Assembly (NCBI GenBank): GCA_963712115.1
Contig: CAVQGX010000031.1
Span: 128,001 to 192,000, forward strand
Direction of reading: 5' to 3'
From: an uncultured delta proteobacterium
GTDB taxonomy: Bacteria; Desulfobacterota; Syntrophobacteria; BM002
DNA: 64,000 bases
Part shown: positions 16,923 through 47,833 of the stretch, one piece after another
Layout of the letters: every line of letters starts with the position of its first letter
How positions within the stretch are numbered: position 1 is the stretch's first letter
Notes under the pieces: generated by a model
What the model saw: the letters and a program-made list of their open reading frames with translations, nothing else
Told to the model about the DNA's origin: nothing
Database searches by the model: none
Translations under genes and position numbers: made by a program

Positions 16923-17024
16923 GTTCTACTATACAGTCTACTATATCACTTTTATCTCTCGCAGAGTTCACAGAGCCACAGAGTCTAAATCTCGAAGTAA
17001 GAGGAGACAGTGGTCGACACGGTA

Positions 17025-17159
17025 GGATCACTCAAAGGCTTAGTGAGAATCCCTTGTGGCTTGGAATAAGCAAATTTATCCCATTCCACAAGGGATCCCC
17101 ACAACTACCGATGCGTTCGCATCGGTAGCCCCTGCTGCGCAGGGAACTTTGATCGATTT
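17025..17159 (+). ncRNA. ~135-nt four-way-junction structure upstream of GxxExxY (copy A)
   Basis: Outer stem GATC..CAAAG/CTTTG..GATT; CCCTTGTGG/CCACAAGGG; CTACCGATGC-GTTC-GCATCGGTAG; CCCTG-CTGCG-CAGGG. Confidence 0.6.
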
Positions 17160-17223
17160 AGGGCGCACGCTATATTATTTTTTGGGAGCTCACCGAGGAT
17201 TCTGGAGAGCACAGGGGGCACAT

Positions 17224-17601
17224 ATGGAACTGAACCAGTTGTCGTCAAAAACCATCCAAGCTGCTATAGCAGTGCATAAGGAACTTGGACCAGGTTTACT
17301 GGAGTCTGTCTATCAAGCGTGCATGCTGATAGAACTGGAGAATATGGGGATTGAAGTCGAGTCCGAAGTTTATTTACCAATTATTTACCGCGGTAAGACG
17401 ATAGAAGGCCAAGCATTCCGTTTGGATCTCGTGGTAGAGGAAAAGGTTGTCTTGGAATTAAAATCAGTAAATAAAGTGGAACCAGTACACAAGAAACAGC
17501 TTCTAACCTATTTGCGTTTAGCAAACAAGCCACTTGGGTTGTTGATAAATTTTAACGAGCCTTTGCTAAAAGAAGGGATTACAAGAATAATCAATACCTA
17601 G
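17224..17601 (+). CDS. GxxExxY protein (PD-(D/E)XK nuclease-like)
   Basis: VHKELGPGLLESVY, RLDLVVE, ELKSV, QLLTYL, GLLINFN. Confidence 0.93.
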   Translation: MELNQLSSKTIQAAIAVHKELGPGLLESVYQACMLIELENMGIEVESEVYLPIIYRGKTIEGQAFRLDLVVEEKVVLELKSVNKVEPVHKKQLLTYLRLANKPLGLLINFNEPLLKEGITRIINT

Positions 17602-17739
17602 GATTGAACCTACTAGGCGGTCATACGGTTAATATATCACTCAGAGAACTCTCTTGAACTCTGTGGGCTCTAGCGAGTGGAACGAGCGGGCGAGAGATAT
17701 ATAAATCCCAAACTAATTAAGACAGGTTGATCTAGTATT

Positions 17740-34435: not shown

Positions 34436-34541
34436 CTCTGAGGCATTAACCCGCCTAGATACTTCTATAGCTCTCACAGAGACCACAGAGTACTCAGAGA
34501 ACTAAAACCAGTCAGAATGAGGGACAGCAGTGATTAGGTAG

Positions 34542-34675
34542 GGATCGCTCAAAAGCTCATTGGAGATCCCTTGAAGACTAGAATAAACAAGCCCATTCTC
34601 GTCCTCAAGGTATCTCCAATGGTACGATGCATTCGCATCAGCAGCCCCTGCTGCACAGGGGACTTTGAGCGATCC
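34542..34675 (+). ncRNA. ~135-nt four-way-junction structure (upstream type, copy B)
   Basis: GGATCGCTCAAA/TTTGAGCGATCC; CATTGGAGAT/ATCTCCAATG; GATGC-ATTC-GCATC; CCCCTG-CTGCA-CAGGGG. Confidence 0.65.
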
Positions 34676-34897
34676 AGGCGCACACCATAATATTTTTTTG
34701 GGGAGCTCACCGAGGATTTTAGAGACCACAGGGGACGGTCGGAACTTTCCTGAAAGACTGGATTACTAGGATAATCATTGCCCCGAAGGTAACCGACTAG
34801 ATTATTACACTATTGATCTATCGCTTAGAGGGCTCAATGAAACTCTGAGGTCTCGTACATCAAGTCGGATGAAGGTCGAGTTACTCATAGAGAGAAC

Positions 34898-35032
34898 GGA
34901 GCGCTTATAGGCAAAGTGGGGAGGGCTGGATGTCCGGAATGAGCTTGCTTGTTCTGGACATCAAGGTCTCCCCACGTGTCCCGACGCTGTAGCGTCGGGA
35001 CCGCCCGCTTTGCGGGTGCCGATAAACGATCC
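34898..35032 (+). ncRNA. ~135-nt four-way-junction structure (downstream type, copy B)
   Basis: GTGGGGAG/CTCCCCAC with GATGTCCGG/CTGGACATC; GTCCCGACGCT/AGCGTCGGGAC; CCCGC-TTT-GCGGG; homologous to 47596-47730. Confidence 0.6.
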
Positions 35033-35127
35033 CAACACTTTCACCTGCACAGTTTTCTCTGCGTTCTCTGTGGGCTCTAGCGAGCCCTGAGCCTGCCGAA
35101 GGGGGAGCGGGCGAGAGCTCAACAGCT

Positions 35128-39735: not shown

Positions 39736-39770
39736 GGTTATCAATTCCCCAGTTAGTTTGGTCAATTCTC

Positions 39771-40199
39771 ACCACGAAGATCACGAAGACAGAAGCCGTT
39801 ATAATACCATTCGTTTAATTCCATGTTTCATGTACTTCACATTAAAATTCATCAAAAGCCCGATTGATATACCAGACAACTTCATATATGTAAGTAACTG
39901 GGCTTGGTGAACTGGCAGAACTTTATCCACGCTCTTAAGTTCAACTATAATGGTTTTGTCTATAAACAAGTCGACACGATAACCGCAGTCGAGCTTTATA
40001 CCCTTGTATTCTACAGGCAAAGGGTGTTGTAGTTTGAACGGTATCCCCGCATTTGTCAGCTCATGAGCAAGGCACTGCTCATACGTGGATTCAAGTAATC
40101 CAGGGGCCAGATGCCTATGGACCTCTAGAGCACAGCCAATAACTTGGTTTGACAGTTTATCGAACTTCATTCTTCGTGCCCCTTCGTGTCCTTCGTGGT
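39771..40199 (-). mobile_element. minimal GxxExxY cassette with 9-bp-period inverted repeats, inserted in the RND operon
   Basis: ACCACGAAGATCACGAAG (39771-39788) and CTTCGTGTCCTTCGTGGT (40182-40199) are 16/18 inverted matches flanking the gene. Confidence 0.7.
39799..40170 (-). CDS. GxxExxY protein
   Basis: VHRHLAPGLLESTY, YRVDLFI, VELKSV, QLLTYM, GLLMNFN. Confidence 0.93.
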   Translation of the reverse strand: MKFDKLSNQVIGCALEVHRHLAPGLLESTYEQCLAHELTNAGIPFKLQHPLPVEYKGIKLDCGYRVDLFIDKTIIVELKSVDKVLPVHQAQLLTYMKLSGISIGLLMNFNVKYMKHGIKRMVL

Positions 40200-41636
40200 T
40201 TGATCTTTTTGCCCAAGCATAACCGGTCCTGGATCTCCCCAGCCTCCTCCAAGAGCCCGGTGGAGATTGACACGGTTGTTCAGAAGGGTGAAGTCCACCT
40301 GCAAGAGGTCACGTTCGGCCTCAAAGCGGGTTCTCTGTGTGTCCAGCACCGTGAGAAAATCAGTAAGACCCTTTTCGTATCGACTCTCAGCAAGCCTTTG
40401 CGCCTCCCTGGCCTCGTGCAGAAAAGTAACTACATATTCCCGACGTTTCAACTGTTCTTCCCGTGTCAAAAACGCTCCTTCCACTTCGGCAAAAGCGGTG
40501 AGCACTGTCTTGGCGTATTCGGCCACACCCTGTTGATATCTGGCCTCGGCCGCGCGTTGAGCAGCCTGCAATTTACCCGCGTCAAACAATGGCTGTGCAA
40601 TCCCGGCGGCAATACTCCACAACTCATTTTCGGGCTTGAAAAGCCGGTCTAGATCATCGCTGGTGTAACCGTAAGTGGAGGTCAAAACAATCCGGGGAAA
40701 GCGGCTGGCCTTGGCCGCGCCTACTAAGGCATTCAGCGCCACCAGTTGTTCCTCCGCCGCTCTGATGTCCGGCCGCCGAAGCAGCAGCTCGGAGGGAAGG
40801 CCTGGCGGGACTGGGTCTAACCGTTTGTAATAGTCTTCCGGTTGGAGCCTTGGAGGCCTAGTCTCTGGATAGCTTCCAAGAAGGACGGACAATGCCTGCT
40901 GCGTTGTACCCAAGTCCTGTCGCAGGGATGGCAGAGTTGCTTCAGCCCCGGCCAGAACCCTGCGAGCCTGTCTAACATCCAAGACCGAGGTCAGACCTCT
41001 TTTATATCTACTTTCCACCAGATTTAAGCTGCGACGAAAGGACTCGATGAGCTTTATGTCAATATCGATTGCCCGCTCAAACGTCTCCATTTGTAAATAT
41101 AGGGTGACAGTCTCCGCCACCACGGTCTGGGCCACGGTGCGGCGGTTCTCCTCTGCCTGCAGGAGATTGGCCCGCGCCGCCTCTTCTGCCCGGGCAAGAC
41201 GACCCCACAGGTCAATCTCGAAGGAAGCAGGCAAAGCCAAATCATATGTCGTACTTGTTCTATCGATGGAAACTGAATTCGGCTTGGGTATTTGCCGCCG
41301 CTCCACTCCAGCCTCAACGCCCACCTGGGGAAAACGCTCCGCTCGCGTCGAAACCAGTTGCGCTCGCACCTCCAGCACCGCCGCTGTAGCCCTCTTTATA
41401 TCCAGGTTGTTCTTCAGCACCTGTTCCACCAATTGGTTCAACTCGGGGTCATTGAACACACGCCACCATTGGTCGTCGGGCGCCGGCATGACTAGTTCGG
41501 TGGGAGTGTACTGGTAATCAGCAGGCACTTGGAAGCCAACGTCTGGTCGATGGTAGTCTGGACCCATTTTGAAGCAGCCACTTATAGTCAAAGAGATAGC
41601 TAGTACCGCACTTAAATATAGAAATAGTCTCTTCAC
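40167..41636 (-). CDS. efflux outer-membrane lipoprotein (NodT/OprM family)
   Basis: Lipobox ISGC, GPDYHRP, WWRVFNDP, FEIDLWG, LLRRPDI, RALGGGW. Confidence 0.93.
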   Translation of the reverse strand: MKRLFLYLSAVLAISLTISGCFKMGPDYHRPDVGFQVPADYQYTPTELVMPAPDDQWWRVFNDPELNQLVEQVLKNNLDIKRATAAVLEVRAQLVSTRAERFPQVGVEAGVERRQIPKPNSVSIDRTSTTYDLALPASFEIDLWGRLARAEEAARANLLQAEENRRTVAQTVVAETVTLYLQMETFERAIDIDIKLIESFRRSLNLVESRYKRGLTSVLDVRQARRVLAGAEATLPSLRQDLGTTQQALSVLLGSYPETRPPRLQPEDYYKRLDPVPPGLPSELLLRRPDIRAAEEQLVALNALVGAAKASRFPRIVLTSTYGYTSDDLDRLFKPENELWSIAAGIAQPLFDAGKLQAAQRAAEARYQQGVAEYAKTVLTAFAEVEGAFLTREEQLKRREYVVTFLHEAREAQRLAESRYEKGLTDFLTVLDTQRTRFEAERDLLQVDFTLLNNRVNLHRALGGGWGDPGPVMLGQKDQTTKDTKGHEE

Positions 41637-46803: not shown

Positions 46804-46904
46804 TTATTCAGACTCTTAGTTAAATGCATATATCTCTCACAGAGCTCACAGAGTTCTCAGAGTCCTGACGCACATCAAATAAAAAAATTTAAAGGAAACA
46901 TTGA

Positions 46905-47040
46905 AAGATCACTGATAGCTAAACGGGGATACCTTGAGGACCGGCACAAGCGAGCTTATACCCTCCCACAAGGTATCCCCGCATCTACCGATGCATTCGC
47001 ATCGGTAGGTCCTGCAGCGCATGAGACTTTCAGCGATCTT
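46905..47040 (+). ncRNA. ~135-nt four-way-junction structure (upstream type, copy C)
   Basis: AAGATCACTGA/TCAGCGATCTT; CGGGGATACCTTG/CAAGGTATCCCCG; CTACCGATGC-ATTC-GCATCGGTAG; third short stem. Confidence 0.65.
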
Positions 47041-47103
47041 GGTGCACACTTCATTGGTTTTTTGGGAGCTCACGGAGGATTAAGAAGATCACAGGGGGCG
47101 CAC

Positions 47104-47496
47104 ATGGATTTAAACCAACTATCCTCACAAATCATCCAAGCTGCTACAGCAGTTCATAAAGAGCTTGGCCCTGGCCTGCTGGAATCTGTCTACCAAGCAT
47201 GCATTACGATTGAACTTGAAAAAATGGGGATAGAGTTCAAAGCTGAGGCTTCCCTGCCTATCTCTTACCGCGGCAAGAAATTAGATAAGCTGTTATTCCG
47301 CTTGGATCTACTGGTAGAAGACACGGTTATTGTGGAATTGAAATCAGTAGAAAAAGTGGAACCAGTGCATAAGAAACAGCTTCTCACCTATTTACGTCTG
47401 GCGCAGAAGCCACTTGGTCTGTTGATAAATTTCAACGAGTCTTTACTGAAGGACGGGATCACTAGAATAATCAACACCCCAGAGAGAAACGAATAA
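47104..47496 (+). CDS. GxxExxY protein
   Basis: VHKELGPGLLESVY, RLDLLVE, VELKSV, QLLTYL; close paralog of 17224-17601. Confidence 0.93.
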   Translation: MDLNQLSSQIIQAATAVHKELGPGLLESVYQACITIELEKMGIEFKAEASLPISYRGKKLDKLLFRLDLLVEDTVIVELKSVEKVEPVHKKQLLTYLRLAQKPLGLLINFNESLLKDGITRIINTPERNE

Positions 47497-47595
47497 GAGT
47501 CGTCGGGTGCGACGTGATCACTCAGTGGACTCAAAAAAATTCTGGGAGCTCTTAATCCAACAAGACGAGTGAGAGGAGTAGAGATTCCTCAGGAA

Positions 47596-47730
47596 GGATC
47601 GCCTAGAGGCCAAGTGGGCAGCGCTTGGAGGACAGTAATAAGCTTGCTTATTCTGGCCACCAAGAGCTGTCCACTGTCACGATGCGTCAGCATCGGGGCC
47701 GTCCACTGTGCGGCAGTCTCTAGGCGATCC
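47596..47730 (+). ncRNA. ~135-nt four-way-junction structure (downstream type, copy C)
   Basis: GGATCGCCTAGAG/CTCTAGGCGATCC perfect 13-bp outer stem; GTGGGCAGC/GCTGTCCAC; AATAAGC-TT-GCTTATT; CGATGC-GTCA-GCATCG. Confidence 0.6.
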
Positions 47731-47833
47731 CGATACTTTGACCGACACATATTTCTCTGCGTTCTCTGTGAGCTCTAGCGAACCCTGAGCTTCGGCGAAG
47801 GGTGAGCGGGCGAGAGATCTATCAATTGAAATA

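Follow-up and report, generated by a model that had tools for sequence, protein, structure and literature searches.

The window analysed here is a stretch of 64,000 nucleotides (assembly GCA_963712115.1, contig CAVQGX010000031.1, positions 128,001 to 192,000 of the forward strand) from an uncultured delta proteobacterium, whose genome (4.9 Mb in 70 contigs, 94% complete) is labelled G000 below, its contigs being denoted C1, C31, and so on. The window carries three copies—A, B, and C—of a repeated element with inverted ends, located between mutually unrelated genes and in A and C enclosing a small open reading frame (ORF) for a protein of the GxxExxY family. They belong to an old family of hairpin-shaped repeats that lack an ordinary transposase of their own and once spread through this group of sediment bacteria; some members contain a small nuclease gene, while most have just a conserved cross-shaped DNA/RNA structure. 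The parts of the three copies are listed here, the modules being scored against the covariance model R1 described below.

46832..47818, plus strand: copy C, full-length composite of outer arms, module, inner arms with ORF, second module, and right end
46833..46862, plus strand: left outer arm of C, TCTCTCACAGAG CTCACAGAG TTCTCAGAG, heptamers at 9-bp period
46903..47042, plus strand: module 1 of C ("leader"), four-way junction, 104.4 bits against R1
47058..47103, plus strand: inner left arm of C and pre-ATG segment, TTTTTTGGGAGCTCACGGAGGATT..CACAGGGGGCGCAC
47104..47496, plus strand: GxxExxY ORF of C, 130 amino acids
47515..47539, plus strand: inner right arm of C, GTGATCACTCAGTGGACTCAAAAAAA, inverted partner of 47058-47080 (read by eye)
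47593..47733, plus strand: module 2 of C ("tail"), four-way junction oriented as module 1, 108.7 bits
47753..47818, plus strand: right outer arm of C (CTCTGCG..CTCTGTG..CTCT) with the AGCGA...GAGCGG insert at 47777-47809 and terminal GCGAGAGA
16953..17699, plus strand: copy A, left arm from 16955, module at 17022-17162, no second module
17224-17601: ORF of A, 125 amino acids
17658-17698: right arm, insert, and end of A
34469..35119, plus strand: copy B, ORF-less two-module derivative, left arm 34470-34499, right end 35056-35117
34539-34678 and 34895-35035: modules of B
near 34736-34740: deletion junction of B, with a 3′ remnant of the ORF at about 34740-34790

A three-way alignment over the whole length showed that A, B, and C are alignable from end to end. 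They share the left end TCTCTC[A/G]CAGAG-nn-CACAGAG-nn-C(T)CAGAG with its 9-bp period, a right end that reads CTCTG.G..CTCT, then AGCGA...GAGCGG, and then GCGAGAG(A), and a leader of about 270 bp ending with TTTTTTGGGAGCTCAC.GAGGATT...CACAGGGG, which in A and C is immediately followed by the ATG. Heptamers of the form C[A/G]CAGAG, repeated at the same period in inverted arrays, build up the outer arms, which are closed by TCTCTC...GAGAGA, and since the right side alone possesses the AGCGA..GAGCGGGCGAGAG extension, conserved as sequence, the ends of the element are asymmetric. A degenerate 20-mer of the left end matches the genome 13 times and its reversed control 0 times; the sharing of ends and leader among the three copies is far beyond chance. 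A first-pass annotation of the window had described this very combination of a common left end, an inverted right end with an insert, and a leader running into the ATG, and the alignment bears it out. Immediately beyond TCTCTC...GAGAGA the sequence is rich in A and T and approximately inverted (TTTTAT / ATAAAA-like, for example at 16948-16954 and 17698-17708), implying that the true termini may lie a few bases further out or that AT-rich palindromes may be preferred for insertion.

A whole-genome motif scan, which sought pairs of ends up to 2.5 kb apart, raised the number of copies from the three originally reported to 17, plus one cut by a contig end, the shortest measuring 68 bp and the longest 985 bp. 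The ORF survives in A and C alone. Four elements are ORF-less with two modules (B, C1:18625-19267, C9:52367-52949, and C31:345548-346176), one is further deleted (C31:208594-209071), eight have a single module over about 270–320 bp, including one with an inverted and one with a partial module, one of 246 bp is decayed, and one of 68 bp (C47:5338-5405) consists of arms only. All sit tightly in intergenic spaces. No transposase is enclosed by any copy in this genome, no end pair within 2.5 kb encloses another gene, every element being shorter than 1 kb, and no ORF of at least 40 amino acids besides GxxExxY is common to the copies, in agreement with the initial view of GxxExxY as the sole protein of an element lacking a transposase.

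The ORFs of A and C match PF13366 with 142 bits (cut-off 22, E 1e-41) and TIGR04256 with 145–146 bits (cut-off 35, E 1e-43). Over 34 aligned sequences the residues G24-L-L-E27-S-V-Y30, D68, and E78-L-K80 are invariant, of which E27, D68, and E78-x-K80 would in our reading constitute the catalytic core of a PD-(D/E)XK nuclease. The ratio of nonsynonymous to synonymous divergence (dN/dS) between A and C is 0.10 over 122 codons, with a dS of 1.37 that is close to saturation; the ORF is under purifying selection. For an AlphaFold2 model with a predicted local distance difference test score (pLDDT) of 72.6, comparison with VIA-align returned the restriction enzyme R.SwaI (Z 6.6), tRNA splicing endonuclease (5.8), the Holliday-junction resolvase Hjc (5.6), and the Cas4 protein SSO0001 (5.1), all below the Z of 8 that the tool regards as clear, while Foldseek found no match to the model in PDB at E ≤0.001 and a sequence search of PDB gave nothing meaningful (a single match, E 0.52). 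The structural matches are thus generic, in that the model would fit the PD-(D/E)XK superfamily and name no specific activity. The family itself is very large, with 8000 proteins obtained in one search at E ≤1e-10. The function of PDDEXK_3 is given as "Unknown" in the accessible part of PMC3424549, the accessible part of PMC8934634 mentions the GxxExxY domain only in passing, and no description of a repeat context for GxxExxY/PDDEXK_3 was found in the full-text literature, a scope that leaves aside subscription journals and supplementary files. A promoter-like site (TTGATC/TTGAGC, 16–18 nt, TATATT/CATAAT) is seen at 17149-17178 in A and, by eye, at about 34664-34695 in B; it spans the 3′ half of the module closing stem and the AT-rich stretch before a T-run and might drive the ORF, with neither promoter nor terminator scans of the element exceeding shuffles.

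Leader and tail turned out to be copies of one module of about 135 nt, in which the closing stem GGATCGCTTAA..TTAAGCGATCC encloses three hairpins—a long one tipped with AATAAGC-nn-GCTTATT, CCGAT..ATCGG, and CCCGC..GCGGG—giving a four-way junction. Searching with an nhmmer profile and with the covariance model R1, built from 29 copies, located 29 full-length and 5 partial modules in the genome, scoring 79–124 bits on one strand versus at most 51 on the other, and their polarity towards the arms is fixed in all copies but one. RNAalifold applied to a plain MAFFT alignment predicted 38 pairs, 28 of them with compensatory double changes. A second pairing test, in which the alignment itself was fitted to the model, drew on 102 copies, 100 of them distinct, taken from this genome and from 17 relatives; it found 90.6% of cells paired versus 78.5% for shuffles and 32–47% for slid partners, double changes in 34 of the 38 pairs, and a covariation score of 0.385 versus 0.168, reached by 0 of 500 shuffles. 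The module is therefore real, and its pairing is maintained via compensatory changes. Folded as single-stranded DNA (ssDNA), a single-module element of 293 nt forms arms, junction, and a 3′ hairpin with z = -6.8, so that the structured flanks surmised at the outset are confirmed by both covariation and folding; for the arms-only element z = -1.8, 8 of 200 shuffles folding as well. Identity between A and C amounts to 74% in the module and 79% in the segment from module to ATG compared with 54% at third codon positions, which argues that the non-coding parts are constrained. Rfam yields 0 matches in the window at gathering scores, and with E up to 10 the module attracts only microRNA-hairpin and long non-coding RNA models, spurious and far below gathering scores. 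Within the genus, 16 of 17 further genomes yielded the module, as did 2 of 4 that represent other genera of the family; it was found in none of 19 genomes taken from five other families of the class. Of 100 copies, 59 have a CAGAG arm or a GGGCGAGAG end within 200 nt.

The element is nested, in that the ORF with its own inner inverted arms, TTTTTTGGGAGCTCACCGAGGA ... TCACTCAGAGGGCTCAATAAAA, lies inside the outer one. At the site orthologous to C31:215017-215302 the relative G007 has arms only and both G000 and G010 have arms with the module, the difference being bounded by a 4-bp CTCT repeat. Together with the other arm types found around the module, this identifies arms, module, and ORF cassette as separable layers. 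The G010 copy at that site (L197, contig C7) has lost the long hairpin through a deletion placed precisely at the hairpin base, and what remains of the module is its closing stem with the other two hairpins. The three other GxxExxY genes of the genome lie directly between simple inverted CACGAAG or CGCAGAG arrays, within operons and with no module. One of them belongs to the window.

39760..40205, minus strand: simpler GxxExxY cassette, ORF 39799-40170 (123 amino acids), arms of CACGAAG units, no module

This cassette shows the basic architecture without the extras of copy C. It is located inside an efflux operon, with the outer-membrane gene on one side and the membrane-fusion gene on the other; the upstream ORF reads through the arm (C-terminus ..TTKDTKGHEE) and overlaps the nuclease start in ATGA, and a paralogue of its gene, 96% identical, is found at C31:229316-229666 between two cobalamin-pathway-like genes. 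Among the GxxExxY proteins of the genome identity is 78% and 96% within an arm type and 44–55% between types. Out of 80 GxxExxY loci taken from other species, 78 were used for analysis of flanking repeats (two were dropped because of short flanks), and 59 of these have inverted repeats between their flanks, mostly of C[A/G]CA[A/G]AG-like units. The arms abut the ribosome-binding region and the ATG. The motif AAGGGGCAC before the ATG was considered as a cassette-specific feature and discarded, as it also precedes intI; it is probably a general ribosome-binding context.

Heptamer arms are not confined to GxxExxY. Every one of the 14 matches of the genome to PF05635, the protein of 23S rRNA intervening sequences (IVSs), lies between inverted tandem arrays built from a 7–9-bp unit peculiar to that locus (for instance GCATAGG, GTCATTA, CTAAAATG, and CGAGACG), and 3 of the 14 contain in-frame stop codons. 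A particular accumulation is seen in C14:33000-83000 of G000 (L021–L023), where nested heptamer arrays give 72 Tandem Repeats Finder rows in 20 kb and 12 module copies stand together with toxin-antitoxin genes (three PIN, two ParE, MazF, and DUF5615); the region looks like a sink for heptamer-armed cassettes. Within it (L021 8442-9044, that is C14:38441-39043) a PF05635 four-helix-bundle gene is split by an 84-amino-acid GIY-YIG ORF (PF01541, E 3e-15), so that a small nuclease of another predicted kind is also found nested within a cassette of this sort.

Past spread of the family is recorded in its deletions and in its distribution. One deletion junction, running from just before the ATG to ..NE.LLKDGITRI.. 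and keeping the last ~20 codons of the ORF, is common to five loci—B, C1:18625-19267, C9:52367-52949, C31:345548-346176, and C31:208594-209071—and in B the part lost extends from the start codon of the ORF as far as roughly codon 105. The deletion therefore took place once, after which the gene-less derivative was copied, that is, it spread in trans as a non-autonomous element. In a distant metagenome-assembled genome (L117, about 1880-2130) a full-length copy has an ORF-less neighbour, which likewise retains the last ~20 codons and whose junction differs by no more than a few bases from that in G000, reflecting either an ancient lineage of derivatives or a requirement for the ORF 3′ end in cis. 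In the relative G009 an almost full-length copy (73% identity) was matched, the match being confined to the element and not extending to the flanking genes of the window. A CAGAG left arm is present in all six closest relatives of the ORF in other lineages (65–76% identity; the record titles include Desulfobacteraceae, Desulfatiglandales, and Deltaproteobacteria UBA6106), the right end ..AGCGA..GAGCGGGCGAGAGA is found in 4 of the 5 with a readable 3′ flank, other hairpins occupy the place of the module, and head-to-tail copies occur. Across the phylum the left-end pattern was detected in 24 of 301 sampled genomes (16 of 200 genera), in up to 15 copies per genome, with 0 for the reversed control. 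The family has thus spread to many loci, both as full-length copies and as internally deleted gene-less ones.

Orthologous sites were compared at five loci (A, B, C, C31:215017, and C38:75971) in up to five relatives each, resulting in 19 site-genome pairs with both flanks located. The most diverged relative, G010 (flanks of 72–80% identity), has a CAGAG element at four of the five sites. The one at C has a single module, the one at A consists of arms and remnants, at 215017 the module is without its long hairpin, and at C38 the element is complete. In closer relatives (83–94%) mostly other arrays are found along with remnants of CAGAG ends (ATCTCTCACAGAGATC; GGGCGAGAG), and these left-end or right-end remnants persist beside start codons where the rest was replaced. 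In two environmental DNA runs, contigs track the left flank of C up to 46788 and continue into different array-like sequence, so a further allele of the intergenic site seems to exist in the population. Joints skipping 890–933 bases, likewise from DNA runs, have sides of only 21–29 letters and probably stem from other, shorter copies.

Whether the pairing matters in DNA or in RNA can be approached via the mismatches that stems tolerate. Transition-type mismatches in module stems (n = 226) divide into 109 of G·U type versus 117 of A·C type, and those in arms (n = 180, from 75 of 93 cassettes) into 86 versus 94. In a sense-strand RNA, G·U mismatches are as a rule much less disruptive than A·C. 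The near-equal numbers therefore speak for Watson-Crick pairing in DNA or the use of both strands and favour a role of pairing at the DNA level; as G·U is not in excess, they are evidence against the RNA form of the nuclease-flank idea put forward in the first-pass annotation. Elements within co-directional gene pairs, as judged with crude stop-to-stop ORFs, are sense in four cases and antisense in five. Two metatranscriptome RNA runs gave three contigs of 151 nt, two of which map to the ORF while the third covers the right end; they are uninformative on transcript ends, and the absence of RNA cover over the remainder of the element carries no weight.

On these grounds we tentatively prefer, at a little short of an even chance, to regard the element as selfish DNA, nested and quasi-palindromic, which belongs among the heptamer-armed hairpin cassettes and whose nuclease acts in trans and cuts DNA structures. 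Pairing would then matter in DNA, either single-stranded or extruded as a cruciform, and not in sense RNA; the few ORF-bearing copies would supply the small nuclease in trans; this enzyme would recognize heptamer arrays or junction DNA and cut DNA in hairpin or cruciform form, whereupon the element would be copied or kept by the replication or repair machinery of the host. Such a scheme would work like nuclease-plus-repeat systems of the type of REP/RAYT (repetitive extragenic palindromes with their associated tyrosine transposases) or Ssn/NTS, with the module being a lineage-specific cis-acting or passenger structure at hairpin tips. In this reading it would be the nuclease that moves the element. 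A bolder variant, improbable on our estimate, takes GxxExxY proteins for the enzymes of an unrecognised class of mobile DNA, small structure-specific PD-(D/E)XK nucleases that would read the periodic heptamer arrays on hairpin or cruciform DNA and cut junctions, so that whole palindromes are copied by host replication or repair into the tips of other hairpins, with the module as a hyper-parasite of the cassettes, serving as Holliday-junction-like DNA substrate or decoy for the same machinery, and the ORF 3′ end, kept in all gene-less derivatives, as a necessary cis site; copying into hairpin tips would account for the nesting seen here.

A number of observations weigh against the selfish DNA element with a structure-cutting nuclease. 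The first-pass annotation had named the absence of empty orthologous sites in relatives as one of the outcomes speaking against a selfish element, and this is what was found: clean empty sites number 0 among the 19 comparisons, a hairpin array of some kind being present at every site. Near-identical copies are missing, and no target-site duplication was seen at the elements examined. The lack of clean empty sites and of target duplications marks the copies as old residents, overwritten in the course of time, with no recent mobility seen; of the selfish element originally proposed, past spread, documented by one deletion at five loci and by the ends around ORF relatives, stands, and recent movement is not seen. 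Conservation at orthologous sites across the genus would equally fit a host-level role. The suggestion that the structured flank is the partner of GxxExxY is not supported, as the module is absent from all 80 GxxExxY loci of other species as well as from the three other GxxExxY loci of this genome; its copies mostly occur in ORF-less elements with no GxxExxY nearby, and 41 of the 100 lie between other arm types (CACGAAG, ACAGGAT, CGCAGAC, and CACGGA), often several arrays deep. The module is lineage-specific and not a general partner of GxxExxY. Arm type does track protein clade, which is also expected from co-inheritance of whole cassettes, so that recognition is not proven by it, and the right-end insert folded alone has z about 0, that is, no fold support. 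The G·U/A·C symmetry could also arise from transcription of both strands or from neutral decay, and the metatranscriptome contigs are weakly compatible with transcription, DNA being possible in such libraries. Finally, we know of no way in which a nuclease of 125 amino acids would join DNA.

Competing explanations put the same data into different order. A cassette operating at the RNA level, which we hold as doubtful, would resemble an IVS: its arm stem would be cut by RNase III, its module would be a structured non-coding RNA or protection of mRNA ends, and GxxExxY would be expressed from or act on RNA. The layout of the Coxiella IVS is alike, as far as the accessible part of PMC4990558 describes it, the arms abut the ribosome-binding region and the ATG, and the almost invariable polarity of the module towards the arms also suits this idea, as do in a weak way the short metatranscriptome contigs over the ORF and right end and the promoter-like TTGATC-N16-18-TATATT at the 3′ edge of the module in A, which is not above shuffles. 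It has to contend with the 226 module-stem and 180 arm mismatches showing no excess of G·U over A·C, with mixed orientation towards neighbouring genes, with the lack of an Rfam match and promoter or terminator scans above shuffles, and it leaves the arrival of copies at new loci unexplained by RNA processing. If the element is instead assumed to be a domesticated intergenic repeat (of the type of REP and bacterial interspersed mosaic elements, enterobacterial repetitive intergenic consensus (ERIC), or Correia), with hairpins used as transcript stabilisers, terminators, insulators, or protein-binding sites and GxxExxY as a hitch-hiker, then the tight filling of intergenic spaces, the persistence at four of five orthologous sites between G000 and G010, with flanks 72–80% identical, the end remnants retained beside start codons after replacement of the rest, and the module being more conserved than third codon positions would all be natural. 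Yet closer relatives possess quite different arrays at the same sites, implying that no particular sequence is needed there, orientation is mixed, the ends are conserved along with one ORF clade across lineages, and modules pile up among toxin-antitoxin genes and nested arrays like in a dump of mobile DNA, which makes domestication unlikely.

Still lower we place an ordinary miniature inverted-repeat transposable element (MITE), with ends derived from an insertion sequence whose transposase is encoded elsewhere and GxxExxY as cargo. Terminal inverted repeats, numerous gene-less copies, internal deletion derivatives, and AT-rich flanks next to the ends speak in its favour; it is rendered highly improbable by the size of all elements of the genome below 1 kb with no end pair (up to 2.5 kb) enclosing another gene, by the lack of target-site duplication, and by the fact that in other lineages no gene but that of the GxxExxY clade accompanies these ends. 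The last candidate, with next to no chance of being correct, equates the module with an attC-type site of integrons and the elements with integron cassettes. The genome does encode an integron integrase (C27:2356-3300; TIGR02249, 487 bits at a cut-off of 265), and twelve modules occur among toxin-antitoxin genes in C14:33-82 kb, but the integron beside intI uses canonical attC (..CTAAC...GTTAG..) unrelated to the module, the module ends GGATCGCTTAA...TTAAGCGATCC have no GTT core, and modules lie inside heptamer arms and not at cassette boundaries; this reading was rejected. The contig in question (C27:1-3300) carries at least four canonical attC-like repeats (..CTAACGG..GTTAGG) with small cassettes up to its end.

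Independently of the choice between these readings, the locus represents an unusually complete natural series—full-length, ORF-deleted, single-module, and arms-only copies—with asymmetric ends, and the module is a covarying four-way-junction element of 135 nt that reaches tens of copies per genome and corresponds to no Rfam family. If the nuclease acts on structures, this would explain a widespread multicopy gene family as well as the origin of ORF-bearing rRNA IVSs and might provide a nuclease with a new specificity for structure or sequence; otherwise, the elements would still explain a large part of the fast change of intergenic DNA in these sediment bacteria, as well as breaks in their assemblies. 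The new findings are the composite itself, with its conserved asymmetric ends, the series of deletion derivatives, the junction module, and the pairing statistics.

Among known systems, REP/RAYT combines a small enzyme gene with flanking palindromic repeats that are also dispersed gene-less, being intergenic and lineage-specific; the RAYT protein (TnpA-REP) is a Y1 HUH transposase, and REPs are hairpins of 20–40 nt. The elements described here likewise have a single small enzyme gene between repeats dispersed without it, in intergenic and lineage-specific fashion, whereas their only gene is a PF13366 member encoding a PD-(D/E)XK nuclease of ~125 amino acids instead of a Y1 HUH enzyme, and their repeats are nested palindromes of 68–985 bp with periodic heptamer arrays and a 135-nt junction module. 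Structured cores are also typical for some MITEs, such as Correia/NEMIS, RUP, and ERIC. Non-autonomous copies, terminal inverted repeats, internal deletion derivatives, and intergenic location are common to both, while tandem-heptamer arms and nesting, as well as the lack of target-site duplication and of a matching transposase in this genome, set the present elements apart. ORF-bearing 23S IVSs share the layout of the element. In Coxiella burnetii the IVS with its S23p protein has a 28-bp stem of terminal inverted repeats and is regarded as a selfish genetic element, tandem GACAGAT heptamers precede the ORF start, and RNase III cuts at the first repeat, according to the accessible part of the source (PMC4990558). 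A small ORF in the loop of a long terminal inverted-repeat stem, with heptamers before the ATG, is thus a shared trait as far as that part goes, and the 14 IVS-protein matches of our genome possess the same kind of arms. The differences concern location between protein genes and not in an rRNA helix (the window contains no rRNA match), a PD-(D/E)XK nuclease versus a four-helix-bundle protein, an asymmetric conserved right end with one or two modules and many gene-less derivatives, and pairing statistics that are not RNA-like. As for nucleases acting on repeats, the gene for the GIY-YIG enzyme Ssn is often flanked on both sides by the hairpin repeat it recognises, NTS/SRM, present in many copies genome-wide, and Ssn acts on single-stranded DNA with a role in transformation (Chenal et al. 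2025, PMC11893778, accessible part). Judged by analogy and by what that part reports, Ssn/NTS would be the closest working analogue of the element, differing from it by its GIY-YIG in place of a PD-(D/E)XK fold, by repeats that are short single hairpins, and by a reported role other than mobility.

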